Shown here: positions 1 to 5,193 of the stretch, one piece after another
Layout of the letters: the number at the start of each line of letters is the position of its first letter
Numbering within the stretch: the first letter of the stretch is position 1
IMG/VR virus record: IMGVR_UViG_2897358383_000001
Span: 1 to 5,193 of that record
Reading direction: 5' to 3' (one strand)
Length of the DNA: 5,193 nt
From: a virus
Taxonomy: Duplodnaviria; Heunggongvirae; Uroviricota; Caudoviricetes
Translations under genes and position numbers: made by a program
The notes under the pieces: model-generated
Databases searched by the model: none
Seen by the model: the letters and a program-made list of their open reading frames with translations, nothing else
Told to the model about the DNA's origin: nothing

Positions 1-1
1 C

Positions 2-328
2 CCAACGTTAAAATTACCTGATTTACGCGGTGAGTTTATCCGTGGTTGGGATGATGGGCGAGGTGTGGATGCGGGAAGGGTCATCTTAAGCATACAGGGG
101 TGGTTAACAGGAAGTCATTATCATAATATTCGGTCATGGGACGCGTGGGATAACACGGTATTGGTGCCAAATGACAGAGGGGGGGATAGCCTGTTGTCGA
201 CAGATAACGCCGTCCAAGAAGGAGCGATTAATGGTAAATTTACCAGTCAATACAGAACGGAGTTATCTGGGGGGAATGAAACCCGCCCACGTAACATTGC
301 CTTCAATTATATTGTGAGAGCAGCATAA
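2..328 (+). CDS. Tail-fibre protein, C-terminal variable (receptor-binding) cassette A; 5' end lies upstream of the window
   Basis: Frame is open from position 2 to TAA at 326-328 (the GTG at 65 in the ORF track is internal). Translation PTLKLPDLRGEFIRGWDDGRGVDAGR...ETRPRNIAFNYIVRAA carries the Mu S / P1 S-type motif and the same C-terminal 16-mer as the - strand cassettes. Its stop overlaps the next start (TAATG). Confidence 0.8.
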   Translation, partial: PTLKLPDLRGEFIRGWDDGRGVDAGRVILSIQGWLTGSHYHNIRSWDAWDNTVLVPNDRGGDSLLSTDNAVQEGAINGKFTSQYRTELSGGNETRPRNIAFNYIVRAA

Positions 329-938
329 TGGATAATGCGATATTAAATAGCGAACTTATAGCCATACAGGCAGGAAACATTATCGTTTATAACTATGATG
401 GTGGTAATCGGGAATATATTTCTGCATCAACTGAATATCTTGCTGTTGGCGTTGGTATTCCGGCACATTCTTGTTTGGATGCTCCAGGCTCACATAAAGC
501 AGGTTATGCGATTCTCCGTTCAGAGGATTTAAGTTCATGGGAGTATGTGCCAGATCATCGTGGCGAAACTGTCTATAGCATTGACACAGGGAATCCCGAA
601 GAAATCACGGTGTTGGGTGACTATCCGGAAAATACAACCACTATCGCCCGCTAACACCATACGACAAATGGGATGGAGAGAAATGGGTGGTTGATACTGA
701 GGCTCAACATAGTGGCAGCTGTAGAGGCAGCAGAAACAAAACGTCAGTCATTGATTGATACTGCGATGGATTCCATTAGTCTGATTCAGTTGAAATTACG
801 GGCTGGACGGAAGTTGACGCAGGCAGAAACCACCAGCTTAACTCCGTGCTAGATTATATAGACGAGCTGAACGCGATGGATTTAACCACGGCACCAGATC
901 TCAACTGGCCTGAAAAACAACTTTCTACAGCCAGTTGA
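328..938 (+). pseudogene. Tail-fibre assembly chaperone (Tfa/U-like), reading frame interrupted at least three times
   Basis: ATG at 328 overlaps the cassette A stop. Frame 1 (328-654) gives MDNAILNSELIAIQAGN...ENTTTIAR*. The protein then continues in frame 3 (657-~710, PYDKWDGEKWVVDTEAQH), frame 1 (~709-852, VAAVEAAETKRQSLIDTAMDSISLIQLKLRAGRKLTQAETTSL) and frame 3 (849-938, LDYIDELNAMDLTTAPDLNWPEKQLSTAS*). The C-terminal TAPD(I/L)xWP motif is typical of phage tail-fibre assembly proteins. Breaks coincide with short homopolymers. Confidence 0.55.
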
Positions 939-948
939 TATAATTAAT

Positions 949-989
949 CCGCCCTCACAATATAATTAAATGCAATATTACGAGGGCGG
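949..989. other. Imperfect hairpin (CCGCCCTC..AATAT / ATATT..GAGGGCGG) between the convergent chaperone gene and cassette B; possible bidirectional terminator
   Basis: 8-bp GC-rich stem 949-956/982-989 with an inner 5-bp AT stem 959-963/975-979 and an 11-nt loop. It lies inside the sequence encoding the cassette B C-terminus (RPRNIAFNYIVRA) and is followed by only a short T-run (GTTTCT). Confidence 0.25.
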
Positions 990-1243
990 GTTTCTAAGCC
1001 AGCAGTACCTAAATTAGCTACGGACTGTTTATATGTTTTAAAGTTCCATAATTAGGGGCTGGCAATCCTGCATCGCTTGTGTTCCCCCATCTGATAACTC
1101 CCGTATTACCACTAGTAGCCCATGCCTCGTCAAAGTAGAAATTAATTGAGCTGTCAGTTGCTACGGTTGATTTTGACGGTAATCCGTGAGCATGATCTCC
1201 GTTGCATATCCTTGCTCGCTTAAATAGAGCGACCTGGATCAAT

Positions 1244-1447
1244 CCCGCGCCCGTCATCCCAGCCACGAATGAACTCACCACGTAAATCAGGCAATTTATT
1301 GTCGGGTTAAGCCTTTGCCAGATTTGGGTACTTTTCAGAAGAAAATGCTGCACCATTGCATTTCAGCCACCCCGTTGGAGGTGTGGCTGAGGGCCACGGA
1401 ACAGGCACACCAACAGGCAGTGCAGAGCCTTCCCCAAACCAACGTTT
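1244..1447. repeat. Direct repeat copy 1 (5' module of cassette B including crossover site)
   Basis: Aligns with 1731-1934. About 98% identical over the site-proximal ~140 bp (1310-1447 vs 1796-1934: three substitutions plus a 1-nt C-run difference), about 75% over the distal ~65 bp. Confidence 0.85.
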
Positions 1448-1454
1448 TTATGCC
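1430..1454. other. Candidate invertase crossover site (hix/gix/cix-like), copy at head of cassette B
   Basis: TTCCCCAAACC-AA-CGTTTTTATGCC. The core AAACC-AA-CGTTT resembles the AAACC-NN-GGTTT core of Hin/Gin/Cin sites; the left half is 11 nt rather than 12. Confidence 0.4.
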
Positions 1455-1924
1455 GCCCTTACGATGTAATTAAATGCGATATTTCGTGGACGGGTTTCAC
1501 TCCCGCCAGTATTACCGATACTCCCTCGTGAATGAAGTGTCGGTGATGGGATCAGACTCCCTCCTGTATTTGTGGCATCAAGTCCCCATCCTTGTGTGTA
1601 TGTTTTTTTGAAAATTGTCGCCAGCTCCCATTCATCTTTTGTGTCGTAACCATCATTGGCTACAACAATATGTCGATGCTTTTCCAGCATTCCTGTCTGA
1701 ATGCTCAATAAAGCACGTCCCGCATCCACCCCGCGCCCATCATCCCAGCCGCGAATAAATTCTCCCCGTAAATCCGGTAATTTATTGGTGGGATAAGCCT
1801 TTGCCAGATTTGGGTACTTTTCAGAAGAAAATGCTGCACCATTGCATTTCAGCCACCCCGTTGGAGGTGTGGCTGAGGGCCACGGAACAGGTACGCCAAC
1901 AGGCAATGCAGAGCCTTCCCCCAA
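1448..1924 (-). CDS. Tail-fibre variable cassette C (silent orientation, promoterless; expressed only when fused to the constant part by inversion)
   Basis: Intact 158-codon frame ...LGEGSALPVGVPVPWPSATPPTGWLKCNGAAFSSEKYPNLAKAYPTNKLPDLRGEFIRGWDDGRGVDAGRALLSIQ...ETRPRNIAFNYIVRAA*. The apparent start is a TTG immediately preceded by an in-frame TAA (1934-1936) and sits inside the crossover site, so there is no independent start. Confidence 0.75.
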   Translation of the reverse strand: MGEGSALPVGVPVPWPSATPPTGWLKCNGAAFSSEKYPNLAKAYPTNKLPDLRGEFIRGWDDGRGVDAGRALLSIQTGMLEKHRHIVVANDGYDTKDEWELATIFKKTYTQGWGLDATNTGGSLIPSPTLHSRGSIGNTGGSETRPRNIAFNYIVRAA

Positions 1925-1934
1925 ACCAACGTTT
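1731..1934. repeat. Direct repeat copy 2 (5' module of cassette C including crossover site)
   Basis: Partner of 1244-1447 in the same orientation. The diverged inverted counterpart of the distal part is at window positions 1-70 in cassette A. Confidence 0.85.
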
Positions 1935-1941
1935 TAGTCTT
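1916..1941. other. Candidate invertase crossover site (hix/gix/cix-like), outer site next to the invertase gene
   Basis: TTCCCCCAAACC-AA-CGTTTTAGTCTT, 26 bp. The left half matches the recalled gix left half TTCCTGTAAACC at 9 of 12 positions. It lies at the 5' boundary of cassette C, 55 bp upstream of the invertase ATG. Confidence 0.5.
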
Positions 1942-1995
1942 AATCCCTACCTATACCAACGATGTATTTTTAACTAAACAAAGAGGTTGTTTTTC

Positions 1996-2568
1996 ATGCA
2001 AATTGGCTACATTCGTGTGTCAACAAATGACCAAAACACAGATTTACAAAGAAATGCACTGAACTGCGCAGGATGTGAACTGATTTTTGAAGATAAAATA
2101 AGCGGAACAAAGTCAGCCAGACCAGGCTTGAAAAAGCTGCTCAGAACGTTATCAGAAGGAGATACGCTGGTTGTCTGGAAGCTGGATAGGCTTGGCAGAA
2201 GTATGAAACACCTTATCACGCTTATAGAGGAGTTGCGGGAAAAAGGTGTTAATTTCCGTAGTCTGACAGACAGTATTGACACATCAACACCCATGGGGCG
2301 TTTCTTTTTTCACGTCATGGGGGCTTTAGCAGAAATGGAACGTGAATTAATTGTTGAGAGAACACTGGCCGGACTGGCAGCTGCACGCGAACAGGGACGC
2401 ATTGGCGGACGTCGCCCGAAGTTGACAAAAGAACAACATGAGCAAATAGCGAGGTTGATCGAAAATGGCTACAGCAGGAAACAGTTGGCAATTATTTACG
2501 ATATCGGTGTATCGACGATTTATCGTTATCATCCTGTAGAGAAGCGCCAAACTCAATCTGAGCTGTAA
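1996..2568 (+). CDS. Serine DNA invertase, Gin/Cin/Pin/Hin/Min family
   Basis: 190 aa from ATG 1996 (the track start at 1987 is an upstream TTG), with AAGAGG 9 nt upstream. MQIGYIRVSTNDQNTDLQRNAL... contains the catalytic-serine motif, the conserved VVWKLDRLGRSMKHL and GRFFFHVMGALAEMERELI blocks, and a C-terminal HTH (GYSRKQLAIIYDIGVSTIYRY). Confidence 0.95.
   Translation: MQIGYIRVSTNDQNTDLQRNALNCAGCELIFEDKISGTKSARPGLKKLLRTLSEGDTLVVWKLDRLGRSMKHLITLIEELREKGVNFRSLTDSIDTSTPMGRFFFHVMGALAEMERELIVERTLAGLAAAREQGRIGGRRPKLTKEQHEQIARLIENGYSRKQLAIIYDIGVSTIYRYHPVEKRQTQSEL
2017..2080. promoter_or_regulatory. Candidate recombinational enhancer (Fis-binding sites) inside the 5' end of the invertase gene
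   Basis: Position by analogy with hin/gin/cin enhancers. Near-palindrome GTCAACAAATGAC at 2019-2031; GCGCAGGATGTGAAC at 2066-2080 fits the degenerate Fis pattern G-N2-Y-R-N2-W-N2-Y-R-N2-C; centres are about 48 bp apart. Confidence 0.3.
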
Positions 2569-2688
2569 TTCTAATGCCGCGTCGGTGTAATTTATCTTGA
2601 TAGAATAGGTACATTTATCGCGCGGCACATCAATTCGATGTATCTAGCGCCTGCTGACCGCTAATGAAAACTGTCCTCGAAATGTTGT

Positions 2689-2707
2689 CCCTAGCCCGAG
2701 ACTAGGG
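2689..2707. other. Perfect 6-bp palindromic hairpin CCCTAG-N7-CTAGGG in the invertase-downstream intergenic region
   Basis: Stem 2689-2694/2702-2707, 7-nt loop, no T-tract after it. Could be a protein-binding palindrome or a weak terminator. Confidence 0.25.
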
Positions 2708-3003
2708 TATCACCTCTGGAAAGCATACGCAGAACCTTTTTTAACCCAGGGTGCCCAGCCTTTTTGCTGCTCGCCTTATTCGCAAAAATTAGCTCACATC
2801 CTGCGCTTTCAAGTGCTTTTCACTGCATAGCTGTGTTTTGTTCATTTGTCTATATGCGTACATAGCCTATTAGCATATTTTCTGCCCACTATCGTTATTT
2901 ATTGCAAGCTACAGGTTTTAATTAACAAAACCAGTGTGTGTGGAAATCACAAAGTGCATACCGTTCTCAGATGTTGTTCAACTTACTGTTGTATAGGTAA
3001 AAA

Positions 3004-3267
3004 ATGACATTTTATGTACATATCGTGATGTTATCCCTTCTTGGTGGGGTGTATTCGTATTTGAGTGGGCTATGTGAAAACCGTTACGAGTCTTCATGCA
3101 AGAAATTGCTGGCCGAATGTATTTCCGCCGTACTTGCTGGCTTTATTGGCATGTATCTCGCGGAATATAAGGATATGAATGAAAGCCTTCAGAGCTGCAT
3201 GGTTCTTATTTTCAGCGCCAATAGCAGGCTTATTATTGAAGGTTCCAAAAGTCGGTTGAATAGGTAA
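3004..3267 (+). CDS. Small membrane protein, holin-like paralogue of the following gene
   Basis: 87 aa, AGG 6 nt upstream of ATG. Two clear hydrophobic helices (FYVHIVMLSLLGGVYSYLSGL; LLAECISAVLAGFIGMYLA) and a charged C-terminus. Aligns with the 3342-3671 product in the pattern LLxxxGGxxxxL..R..S..LLxxxxExxxAVxAGxxxxYL...ASN. Confidence 0.45.
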   Translation: MTFYVHIVMLSLLGGVYSYLSGLCENRYESSCKKLLAECISAVLAGFIGMYLAEYKDMNESLQSCMVLIFSANSRLIIEGSKSRLNR

Positions 3268-3315
3268 GTCTCTTATGCAACATAACCGGTTGAGAAGTTA
3301 CTTTGCATACCATTA

Positions 3316-3335
3316 CCTCCTGACAACGTAGGAGG
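3316..3335 (+). promoter_or_regulatory. Hairpin occluding the Shine-Dalgarno sequence of the 3342 gene
   Basis: CCTCCT (3316-3321) pairs with AGGAGG (3330-3335) across an 8-nt loop; the paired GGAGG is the only ribosome-binding site, 6 nt before GTG 3342. Confidence 0.35.
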
Positions 3336-3341
3336 GAACTT

Positions 3342-3671
3342 GTGCTTGACACACAGGAATTAGCTCCAGTTGCTATTGCGCTCCTGCTTTCAGTAATTGG
3401 TGGGATAGGCACGTTCCTGATGGATGTCCGAGACGGTCGCCAGTCTGGCAATTTGTTGGGATTGGTTACGGAGATCTTTGTTGCAGTGACAGCTGGCGCG
3501 GTGGCGTACCTATTGGGGCAACACGAGGGCTGGGAGTTATCCATTACGTACTTAATGGTAACGATAGCCAGCAATAACGGTCATGAGGTGATTTCAGGGA
3601 TGAAACGAGTGAATATCGATAGCATTCTGAATGTTCTTACAAGTTTGGTGAAAAAGGGAGGCGGGAAATGA
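3342..3671 (+). CDS. Putative phage holin (small 2-3 TM membrane protein)
   Basis: 109 aa, GTG start with strong GGAGG. TM segments LAPVAIALLLSVIGGIGTFLM and LLGLVTEIFVAVTAGAVAYLLG, a weaker third, and a Lys-rich hydrophilic C-terminus (LVKKGGGK). Stop overlaps the next start (ATGA). Confidence 0.65.
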   Translation: MLDTQELAPVAIALLLSVIGGIGTFLMDVRDGRQSGNLLGLVTEIFVAVTAGAVAYLLGQHEGWELSITYLMVTIASNNGHEVISGMKRVNIDSILNVLTSLVKKGGGK

Positions 3672-4111
3672 TTGGCTGGGGTGTATGCGTTCTTGCGTTA
3701 GCCTTAGCCGATCGCTATTTGCTAAAACGCAAGGACATCACGCATTTAGAACTTGGTGATGTGGAAATTAAACCGGGTTTCATCCGGGTGCCGTTCAAAT
3801 ACCGGTCTAAATTCCCGTTTTTGCGCGGCGCAACGGTCAGATATTGGATCCGCGATGTTCAGAAGCCGACGACAGTGATTGAAGGCGAACAACGTTGTTT
3901 GACGTCGGCTGAACAGGGCGAAAACAGTGAATGGTTGTACATACCCACTGAATATATGGGTAAAGGAGAGCGACTGTGGCATTTCAACGTCATGGTTACG
4001 CATGGCGACTCGTTCATTAACCCGTTGTATCGGATTTTCCCTGTTACTCAGCAAATCCGCAGAAGTTACGTAATAAATCTCGCACAGGATGTGTCAGATG
4101 ACGAAAAATAA
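3668..4111 (+). CDS. Hypothetical protein with N-terminal membrane anchor, translationally coupled to the holin-like gene; possible holin regulator
   Basis: 147 aa, ATG 3668 overlaps the upstream stop, AGGGAGG 6 nt upstream. N-terminus IGWGVCVLALALA is hydrophobic, the rest hydrophilic. The function is inferred only from position after a holin. Confidence 0.6.
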   Translation: MIGWGVCVLALALADRYLLKRKDITHLELGDVEIKPGFIRVPFKYRSKFPFLRGATVRYWIRDVQKPTTVIEGEQRCLTSAEQGENSEWLYIPTEYMGKGERLWHFNVMVTHGDSFINPLYRIFPVTQQIRRSYVINLAQDVSDDEK

Positions 4112-4700
4112 GTATGCAACGGTCGATTTTGACCAGGTTAATGAAAAGGGGCTGAAATCCCTTATCGCGGCGATCAATAAAACCGGTGTTACGGTAATTG
4201 AGGTTGACTCCAGCAACCGCGCAACAACGAAAGATGGCGTTAAAGTTAAAACCGCAAAGCTGGTTCTTAACGACGGACAAATTCTTGCCATACAGGTAAA
4301 CGATACTGGCGATATATCGTCTGTGAGGCTGAATGGAAAAGCTATTCCTAACGCTCAATCGCCGGATATCAAGACGCTTGGTACCGTCATGGGGCAAGCG
4401 GCCCGCAAAAACTCCGCAAAATTCCAGAAATCACTGATCGCCAAAGCGAAACGTGTTGCCAATCCGGTAGACAAGAAACCGGCAGTAAAATCCAACTTTC
4501 AGCGCCTGCAAGAGGCAAAACAGCGGAATGCTCAGGTGGTTGCCGCTTATAAATCAGCGCAGAACTCGGTGTCTTTCAATCAACAGCAGATCACTGATTT
4601 GCGGGCGAAGCTGGATAAGGAGACAGGCCGACTCAATAACGAAAAGGCCCGAAATGGCGAACTCAAACGCCGTCTTAAGCAACTGAAAGCAGGAAATTAA
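4098..4700 (+). CDS. Hypothetical Lys-rich protein with C-terminal coiled-coil-like region
   Basis: ATG 4098 preferred over 4089 (AGGA 8 nt upstream); the start lies 14 nt inside the upstream gene. 200 aa, MTKNKYATVDF...; C-terminal third is rich in K/R/Q/E/A (QRLQEAKQRNAQVVAAYK...LRAKLDKETGRLNNEKARNGELKRRLKQLKAGN). Confidence 0.65.
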   Translation: MTKNKYATVDFDQVNEKGLKSLIAAINKTGVTVIEVDSSNRATTKDGVKVKTAKLVLNDGQILAIQVNDTGDISSVRLNGKAIPNAQSPDIKTLGTVMGQAARKNSAKFQKSLIAKAKRVANPVDKKPAVKSNFQRLQEAKQRNAQVVAAYKSAQNSVSFNQQQITDLRAKLDKETGRLNNEKARNGELKRRLKQLKAGN

Positions 4701-4701
4701 C

Positions 4702-5193
4702 ATGGAACAGTTCAATATCAATAAAGGGGTGACGATCAAGCCTGGGCTTGACGTGCTTCCCCCGCCAGTGACTGATGATGAATATCGCGCATTAATGGCC
4801 GGTGAGGACCGCTATCTGATGACGGAATCCAACACCCTGGAGGAAATCGAGGCTACGTTCTTCTATGACACGCCGATCCACTGGTGTGCTACGGATTTAC
4901 TGGAGGCGATTAGTTCTACTCGTTTGCAGTTACACCGGACCATGCAGGCATTTGTCCGGGCATTGAACCAGAAGCTGAATGGTACCGGAATCTCTGCGGG
5001 GAGTGATAAAACGGGGGATGTGGCCCAGAGCGGCGCGCGCGCGATCGGCGGTGCTGAAATTGGCCGGGCACGGAACGTTAACGGGCTGCCGGTCCTGCCA
5101 GCCATTATTCCGCTCAGTGATGGTCAGACTATCAGCATTCTGTTTCATAGCCCGACAGCGGAAAACCGGATCACCAATAGCGATACGCTGGTT
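4702..5193 (+). CDS. Hypothetical protein, 3'-truncated by the window (at least 164 codons)
   Basis: ATG 4702 is 1 nt after the upstream TAA with AGGAAA 5 nt upstream. Frame is open to the window end (MEQFNINKGVTIKPGLDVLPPPVTDDEYRALMAGEDRY...). It is absent from the ORF track only because no stop falls inside the window. Confidence 0.65.
   Translation, partial: MEQFNINKGVTIKPGLDVLPPPVTDDEYRALMAGEDRYLMTESNTLEEIEATFFYDTPIHWCATDLLEAISSTRLQLHRTMQAFVRALNQKLNGTGISAGSDKTGDVAQSGARAIGGAEIGRARNVNGLPVLPAIIPLSDGQTISILFHSPTAENRITNSDTLV

Follow-up and report, generated by a model that had tools for sequence, protein, structure and literature searches.

The stretch of DNA analysed here, called the window throughout, covers 5,193 nucleotides (nt), positions 1 to 5,193 of the tailed-phage record IMGVR_UViG_2897358383_000001 in IMG/VR, and is a segment of a P1/P7-type phage-plasmid, a temperate myovirus kept as a plasmid prophage. 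Its lysis and head genes include lydB and hdf, the second and third genes of the late "dar" operon and the subject of this report. An earlier note, made from the sequence alone, had listed these two open reading frames (ORFs) as genes of unknown function, a description that does not hold: both are already named and genetically characterised parts of a textbook locus, lydB encoding an antagonist of the holin LydA and hdf an internal head protein whose structure has also been solved. The same note had tentatively matched the lengths of 109 and 147 amino acids (aa) to P1 LydA and LydB, and this match is confirmed by the P1 annotation, by Pfam and by protein identities. The account given below, taken as a whole and including a putative translational coupling of the genes and a putative membrane anchor in LydB, is in our judgement very probably correct. 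Results of Schmidt 1996, Piya 2017 and Lobocka 2004 are used as cited in PMC9025707, PMC12810830 and PMC9024508.

A six-frame ORF list of the window contains co-directional plus-strand ORFs of 87, 109, 147 and 203 or 200 aa (the last depending on the start codon), followed by an ORF that runs from 4702 past the window end (Table 1). Megablast with positions 2900-5193 returned 19 phage records, all of P1 type (Punavirus and relatives), at coverage of at least 83% and identity of 94.5-99.8%, and the features lying under these matches are annotated LydC, LydA, LydB, Hdf and DarA. The curated genomes of P1 (AF234172) and P7 (AF503408) have the same arrangement, in the order lydC, LPdar, lydA, lydB, hdf (odaE in P7), darA, ddrA and ddrB. 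At the protein level, LydA is 100% identical to its counterparts in both phages; LydB is 98.6% identical to that of P1, from which it differs by T79A and R132S, and 100% identical to that of P7; Hdf is 98.5% identical to P1 Hdf and 100% identical to P7 OdaE; and the first 164 aa of DarA are 99.4% and 100% identical to those of P1 and P7, respectively. Neither a terminator-like nor a sigma-70-like site was found on the plus strand within 3342-5193, and an Rfam scan of the window found no family, all of which fits a single late transcript from LPdar.

Table 1. Features of the lysis and head-gene segment of the window, with the evidence for each
Feature	Position	Strand	Evidence
lydC-like accessory holin gene, 87 aa	3004..3267	+	Pfam PF16083, E 1.2e-9; phrog_1527 holin; outside the late operon
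LPdar late promoter (-22 box, -10 box)	3295..3313	+	exact copy of the 19-nt annotation in P1 AF234172; annotated in P7 too
lydA, holin gene, 109 aa, GTG start	3342..3671	+	100% identity to P1/P7 LydA; Pfam PF16083; phrog_1527, E 4e-49
lydA/lydB junction: GGGAGG 3656-3661 and ATGA stop/start overlap 3668-3671	3656..3671	+	sequence
lydB, gene for the LydA-holin antagonist, 147 aa	3668..4111	+	Pfam PF16084; phrog_1898; P1/P7 identity
LydB residues 2-19, hydrophobic helix ending in D15-R16, candidate N-out/C-in anchor	3671..3724	+	AlphaFold2 helix; family pattern
LydB residues 24-138, predicted Ig-like beta-sandwich	3737..4081	+	AlphaFold2
lydB/hdf junction: AGGA 4086-4089, alternative ATG 4089, preferred ATG 4098, lydB TAA 4109-4111	4086..4111	+	sequence; JK004 comparison
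hdf (odaE in P7), internal head/Dar-system protein, 200 aa (203 from 4089)	4098..4700	+	phrog_1620; P1/P7 identity; PDB
Hdf N-terminal DarA_N domain, residues 13-109 (203-aa numbering)	4125..4415	+	Pfam PF18788; BLASTP to P1 DarA
Hdf C-terminal alpha-helix domain, residues 135-203 (203-aa numbering), bundles with DarA	4491..4697	+	P1 identity; cryo-EM, PMC12810830
darA 5' part, first 164 codons, cut at the window end	4702..5193	+	Pfam DarA_N, E 2e-22

Comparison with the diverged locus of Cronobacter phage JK004, whose proteins are 59-79% identical to those of the window genes, yields differences at codon positions 1/2/3 of 25/14/53 in lydA, 47/38/87 in lydB and 29/31/123 in hdf; synonymous divergence (dS, by NG86) is saturated for lydB and hdf in this comparison, and the codon-position counts are given in place of the ratio of nonsynonymous to synonymous divergence (dN/dS). 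The third-position excess, together with near-identity to named P1 and P7 proteins, indicates that lydB and hdf are real genes. Two antisense ORFs, at 3746-4054 and 4044-4397 on the minus strand, were considered as genes and rejected, being unannotated in the P1, P7 and D6 records and having their conservation explained by the third-position pattern of the sense frame.

LydB matches Pfam family PF16084 over its full length (residues 1-147 of 147; E 8e-104, 344.1 bits against a cutoff of 28) and phrog_1898 at E 3.6e-85, and its gene stands in the context typical of the family, directly 3' of, and overlapping, a PF16083 holin gene downstream of an exact LPdar; a search by sequence found no relative of LydB in the PDB. 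As shown genetically for P1, LydA would act as the main holin, with LydB antagonism keeping membrane holes from forming until virions are complete. There, lydB amber mutants lyse prematurely and lysis comes later when a lyz-lydA plasmid also receives lydB (PMC9025707), LydB is called essential because unregulated LydA brings about lysis ahead of finished morphogenesis (PMC12894885), and a CRISPR interference (CRISPRi) screen scored lydB as essential and lydA, hdf and darA as non-essential (PMC10695390). The suggestion in the earlier note that the first protein is a holin regulator agrees with this published role as LydA antagonist (PMC9025707, PMC12894885). The window LydB, identical to that of P7 and different from that of P1 at two residues, is predicted to delay LydA-dependent lysis as P1 LydB does; in both phages the protein has the same 147 aa, the same place after lydA and the same ATGA overlap, with no substantive difference.

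Hdf, the product of the next gene, matches phrog_1620 ("Hdf-like antirestriction") at E 4e-80, Pfam PF18788 (DarA_N) at E 1.5e-21 (76.9 bits, cutoff 27) and the P1 Hdf chain 9ukm_H in the PDB (also represented by 9VZ0) at E 9e-119, and its N-terminal domain aligns by BLASTP with residues 107-210 of P1 DarA at 29% identity (E 8e-4). Residues 120-203 are identical to those of P1 Hdf, whose helix 135-203 is modelled in PDB 9UKM, and the three substitutions relative to P1, at positions 27, 61 and 80 in 203-aa numbering, all fall within the N-terminal domain. The gene lies between lydB and darA, as in P1 and P7, and the protein is markedly basic, with 13.5% lysine and 38 lysine plus arginine residues against 17 aspartate plus glutamate. 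Electron cryo-microscopy (cryo-EM) of P1 placed 55 pairs of DarA and Hdf at the penton-hexon junctions, against the inner surface of the capsid; in these pairs, residues 135-203 of Hdf form with DarA a parallel helix bundle that contacts the capsid, while the flexible N-terminal domain of Hdf, modelled by AlphaFold 3 as two helices and a four-stranded sheet, fits density beside the DNA; deletion of hdf or darA strips all Dar proteins from the particles (PMC12810830). According to a preprint, DarA and Hdf are present in T=13 large heads and absent from T=7 small heads (bioRxiv 10.1101/2025.11.26.689930). The earlier note had described the second protein as Lys-rich and coiled-coil-like and had proposed a virion-internal or DNA-associated location, a description well matched by the placement of P1 Hdf on the inner capsid surface, with its C-terminal helix bundled with DarA and its N-terminal domain beside the DNA (PMC12810830, PDB 9UKM). 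By close similarity to its P1 counterpart, the window Hdf is expected to be packaged in the head and to be needed both for Dar proteins to be loaded and for large heads to form. As shown for P1, and with the interacting helix identical here, Hdf and DarA would assemble together at the inner wall of the capsid, determine the formation of large heads, load the other anti-restriction (Dar) proteins and exit with the DNA, the basic N-terminal domain of Hdf presumably adjoining the packaged genome as it does in P1.

The start of hdf is annotated differently in the two reference phages, and the comparative data favour the shorter form. The ATG at 4089, used in the P1 annotation and in PDB 9UKM, gives 203 aa and a 23-nt overlap with lydB; the second in-frame ATG, at 4098, used in P7, gives 200 aa and a 14-nt overlap, and it is for this start that the observation of the earlier note, that the gene begins 14 nt inside its neighbour, holds. 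JK004 has ACG in place of the first ATG and keeps the second alone, the Acinetobacter hdf homologue likewise overlaps lydB by 14 nt, AGGA (4086-4089) lies 8 nt before the ATG at 4098, and the PHROG profile alignment begins at Hdf residue 4, all of which argue for 4098 as the favoured start, with a product of 200 aa. Translation from 4098 would give an N terminus of (M)TKNKYATV, and from 4089 one of MCQMTK. This start is inferred, because the N terminus of Hdf is unresolved in the P1 cryo-EM map (PMC12810830).

LydB belongs to a small family of 16 clusters at 90% identity; a profile search run exhaustively over 1.8 billion proteins gave 60 clusters when grouped at 50% identity. Among GenBank phages it occurs in the P1/P7, D6 and JK004 groups only, and tblastn against the same phages with the distant relatives P0034 and P0044 found no groups beyond these three. 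It is present, besides, in 641 plasmid records, mostly from Escherichia and Salmonella and also from Vibrio, Citrobacter, Klebsiella, Pantoea, Aeromonas and Acinetobacter; an alignment search of viral contigs gave 80 loci, all 99-100% identical and uninformative on distant synteny. Outside P1 and P7, identity to the window LydB is 60% in JK004, 38% in an Acinetobacter venetianus plasmid, 35% in D6 (orf30-27) and in a Vibrio alginolyticus plasmid, 31% in a Shigella dysenteriae plasmid and about 26-32% in three distant loci, L088, L089 and L092. In every one of the ten lineages examined, a holin of LydA type is followed by LydB, an Hdf-like protein about 200 aa long and a DarA-like protein, in that order (the Vibrio record, which ends after LydB, contributes the holin-LydB pair only), and phmmer confirms the homology of the neighbours in the annotated phage and plasmid loci. 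The dar operons of D6 type, of JK004 and of the Acinetobacter, Vibrio and S. dysenteriae plasmids thus share with the window the order holin-LydB-Hdf-DarA(-DdrA) and overlapping starts, although their LydB proteins are only 31-60% identical to that of the window. The link between lydB and a holin gene, whose loss in relatives would have told against the grouping made in the earlier note, is therefore kept in all contexts examined, and the holin-antiholin-Hdf-DarA block, maintained across distant hosts, is a useful marker of P1-like elements. The gene lydC lies outside this conserved block and is absent from D6 and from the S. dysenteriae and Acinetobacter plasmids.

Some variation was noted around the block in the distant loci. 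L088 contains at 3700-3999 a GTG-start ORF of 99 aa with LydA-like holin features, which the source annotation had left uncalled, and its gene at the darA position (5143-8504) encodes 1703 aa with DarA_N, InPase and DarA_C matches. In L089 the protein at the darA position (5078-8110) has 1010 aa and is followed by a gene with an InPase domain, and in both loci the Hdf-like gene still encodes about 200-210 aa despite the larger DarA-like proteins. One LydB family member, P0048 (292 aa), has a C-terminal extension of about 150 aa past the beta-sandwich.

The junctions on either side of lydB are compact. The lydA stop TGA (3669-3671) and the lydB ATG (3668-3670) overlap by 4 nt, and the 147-aa gene does start on the holin stop within an ATGA, as the earlier note had read it; the GGGAGG motif lies 6 nt before this ATG. 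An overlap of lydA and lydB was found in nine of the ten lineages, amounting to 1-8 nt in seven annotated phage and plasmid lineages and present also in L089 and L092; in L088 the genes abut, the last base of the holin ORF lying two positions ahead of the lydB start (4001), with one spare base between. The lydB and hdf genes overlap in seven of the nine lineages in which this junction is visible: the overlap is 11-14 nt in five annotated lineages (P7, D6, JK004 and the plasmids of Acinetobacter and S. dysenteriae), 8-14 nt once L089 is counted with them, and 23 nt as annotated in P1. A motif resembling a Shine-Dalgarno (SD) sequence precedes each overlapping start in the annotated P1, P7, D6, JK004, Acinetobacter, Vibrio and S. 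dysenteriae records. Such an arrangement, with a start overlapping the upstream stop and an SD motif inside the upstream gene, is the geometry of a translationally coupled pair, and the overlap of the LydA stop with the LydB start has already been noted in the literature and used as a hallmark with which to predict antiholins elsewhere (PMC7692668). From overlaps at almost every junction examined, tight co-translation can reasonably be inferred: one mRNA from LPdar would serve lydA, lydB, hdf and darA, the overlaps would link translation of lydB to that of lydA, and translation of hdf to that of lydB, and the antiholin would then be made whenever the holin is made.

The same geometry could reflect how compact phage genomes typically are, with every gene translated independently from a ribosome-binding site of its own, which we consider unlikely, if by no means negligible. 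An SD-like motif at good spacing before each start would suffice for such independent initiation, and the copy numbers per virion differ, about 400 being quoted for Hdf against about 100 for DarA (PMC12810830). Two points weigh directly against coupling as well, namely that a small gap of 4-11 nt replaces the lydB/hdf overlap in L088 and L092, two of the distant loci, and that the argument for coupling is one of geometry. Simple compaction sits less easily with a lydA/lydB overlap that persists in nine of ten lineages, with mere abutment in the tenth, and with the use of this very architecture as an antiholin hallmark (PMC7692668), and we continue to favour coupling.

How LydB might restrain LydA is a matter on which its predicted structure and the variation within its family bear. 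AlphaFold2 models the protein, with a pLDDT score (predicted local distance difference test) of 91.4, as an N-terminal helix followed by a generic immunoglobulin (Ig)-like beta-sandwich, and a search of the viral folds in BFVD gave weak matches only (E of at least 3e-4), none of them functionally annotated. Invariant residues on the LydB surface include D15, R16, P67 and N118, and a stretch at 112-125, HGDSF-NPLYRIFP, is conserved. Residues 2-14 are uncharged and hydrophobic, with a mean Kyte-Doolittle value over 19 residues (KD19) of 1.62, the classical threshold being 1.6. Across 43 full-length members of the family, the N terminus consists of an uncharged hydrophobic run with a median length of 16 aa (range 10-24) and a variable sequence, which ends at a near-invariant (D/E)R motif; lysine and arginine residues average 3.8 in the 15 residues after this motif and 0.05 before it, and KD19 reaches at least 1.6 in 32 of the 43. 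An uncharged run followed by (D/E)R and a cluster of basic residues is, by the positive-inside rule, what a signal-anchor in N-out/C-in orientation shows when its C-terminal domain lies in the cytoplasm, and on this evidence the N-terminal helix is likely, by a modest balance, to be a membrane anchor. The single N-terminal anchor proposed in the earlier note finds support in this family-wide pattern; where it falls short is in the hydrophobicity, borderline in the window protein, and in the published report of zero predicted transmembrane (TM) domains (PMC9025707).

These last points favour a published view in which LydB is a soluble cytoplasmic antiholin that does not insert into the membrane, the helix being part of the soluble fold or making a peripheral amphipathic contact; we regard this as possible, if less probable than an anchor. 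Several observations speak for it and thus against the anchor: no TM domain is predicted for LydB in the 2022 paper (PMC9025707), the uncharged run in P1-type LydB is only 13-14 residues long with KD19 at the threshold, KD19 falls below 1.6 in 11 of the 43 relatives, and a Wimley-White octanol scan did not discriminate, scoring the LydB N terminus no better than aromatic beta-strand segments of the globular domain. Less readily accommodated by a soluble protein are the conservation of N-terminal hydrophobicity while the sequence itself varies, the absence of charges ahead of (D/E)R with a basic cluster behind it throughout the 43 relatives, and uncharged runs of 17-24 aa in many of them, together the evolutionary pattern that signal-anchors usually show. 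Export of LydB is highly improbable by comparison. Under that proposal, A-L-A followed by D15 would mark the cleavage site of a signal peptide, and the beta-sandwich, once in the periplasm, would have a loop of LydA exposed there as its target, much as T4 RI acts on the holin T. Yet the segment, of only 14 aa, has no positively charged n-region, R16, K20, R21 and K22 directly behind the putative site disfavour export, and relatives do not keep the AxA motif, their sequences reading, for example, IAVV-DR, YMIA-DR or LSVI-DR; a cleavable signal peptide was rejected on these grounds.

The T4 antiholins RI and RIII and lambda S107 delay holin triggering; T4 RI is tethered to the membrane by an N-terminal hydrophobic segment and acts in the periplasm, and lambda S107 is the holin itself in an isoform extended at the N terminus. 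LydB shares their functional role, and the N-terminal tether of RI resembles the anchor proposed here. It has no sequence relationship to any of them (Pfam returns PF16084 only) and its predicted fold differs; it is encoded by a separate gene, unlike lambda S107, and its domain is predicted to be cytoplasmic, whereas that of T4 RI is periplasmic. Judged by similarity of sequence or fold, or by the presence of a dual-start holin isoform, LydB belongs to none of the T4 RI, T4 RIII and lambda S107 types of antiholin.

LydA, for its part, has an acidic N terminus, three hydrophobic segments, of which two are clear and the third is short, and a C-terminal tail with five lysine or arginine residues. 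This layout agrees with the topology, class-I and N-out/C-in, that has been reported for a holin with the LydA motif (PMC7692668). A membrane-tethered cytoplasmic LydB domain could, speculatively, reach the cytoplasmic tail or the helices of LydA. LydB would on this model be bitopic, its short N-out/C-in helix holding the Ig-like beta-sandwich at the cytoplasmic face of the membrane, and might bind LydA through the transmembrane helices or the basic cytoplasmic tail of the latter, blocking holin oligomerisation. Quite possibly, then, though we offer it tentatively, LydB represents a structurally new class of antiholin, in which a very short anchor, one that standard TM predictors would have overlooked, and a cytoplasmic Ig-like sandwich restrain a class-I-like LydA from the cytoplasmic face; in P1-like phage-plasmids of Enterobacterales, Vibrio and Acinetobacter, gene overlaps would also tie the holin-antiholin pair firmly to the head module formed by Hdf and DarA. 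The high-confidence fold prediction and the family-wide anchor signature appear to go beyond published accounts, and together they offer a concrete hypothesis for the action of LydB, which was called unknown in PMC9025707.

It is upstream of LPdar that the element of the window differs from both P1 and P7. From LPdar onward identity is 98.5-100%, whereas the window LydC is only 57% identical to P1 LydC and 25% identical to P7 LydC, which points to a recombination breakpoint between lydC and LPdar (around 3270-3295). Positions 1-3000 are not collinear with P1 or P7, and no phage record covers more than 52% of them. This part contains tail-fibre C-terminal cassettes on both strands, two of them as intact ORFs ending in ...ETRPRNIAFNYIVRAA, at 65-328 (plus strand) and 1448-1924 (minus strand), and a third only as a remnant at about 944-1356 (minus strand), together with 221-nt direct repeats at 1230-1450 and 1716-1936 (89% identical) and inverted repeats (11-97 opposite 1697-1783 and 1233-1297). 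The whole resembles an invertible tail-fibre region with several cassettes, exceeding in complexity the single C-segment of P1. A resolvase/invertase gene at 1987-2568 (Pfam Resolvase, E 2e-51) lies on the plus strand and runs in the direction of the lyd genes, while cin lies on the opposite strand in P1, P7, D6 and the S. dysenteriae plasmid; in the closest phage, vB_EcoM-673R5, the invertase is co-directional as in the window and annotated "Hin2/Hin1". Within 328-852, a U-like tail-fibre assembly gene is apparently split into two frames, 328-654 (108 aa) and 673-852 (59 aa), for which a frameshift, decay to a pseudogene or an error in sequencing might account. In the record of vB_EcoM-673R5 itself (ON470615.2, L094), lydB is annotated as a 59-aa fragment (3969-4148), tblastn with LydB likewise finds it in two pieces, and the invertase is broken into Hin2 and Hin1 (2300-2871); because the corresponding lydB and invertase ORFs of the window are intact, these interruptions are probably frameshift errors in that record.

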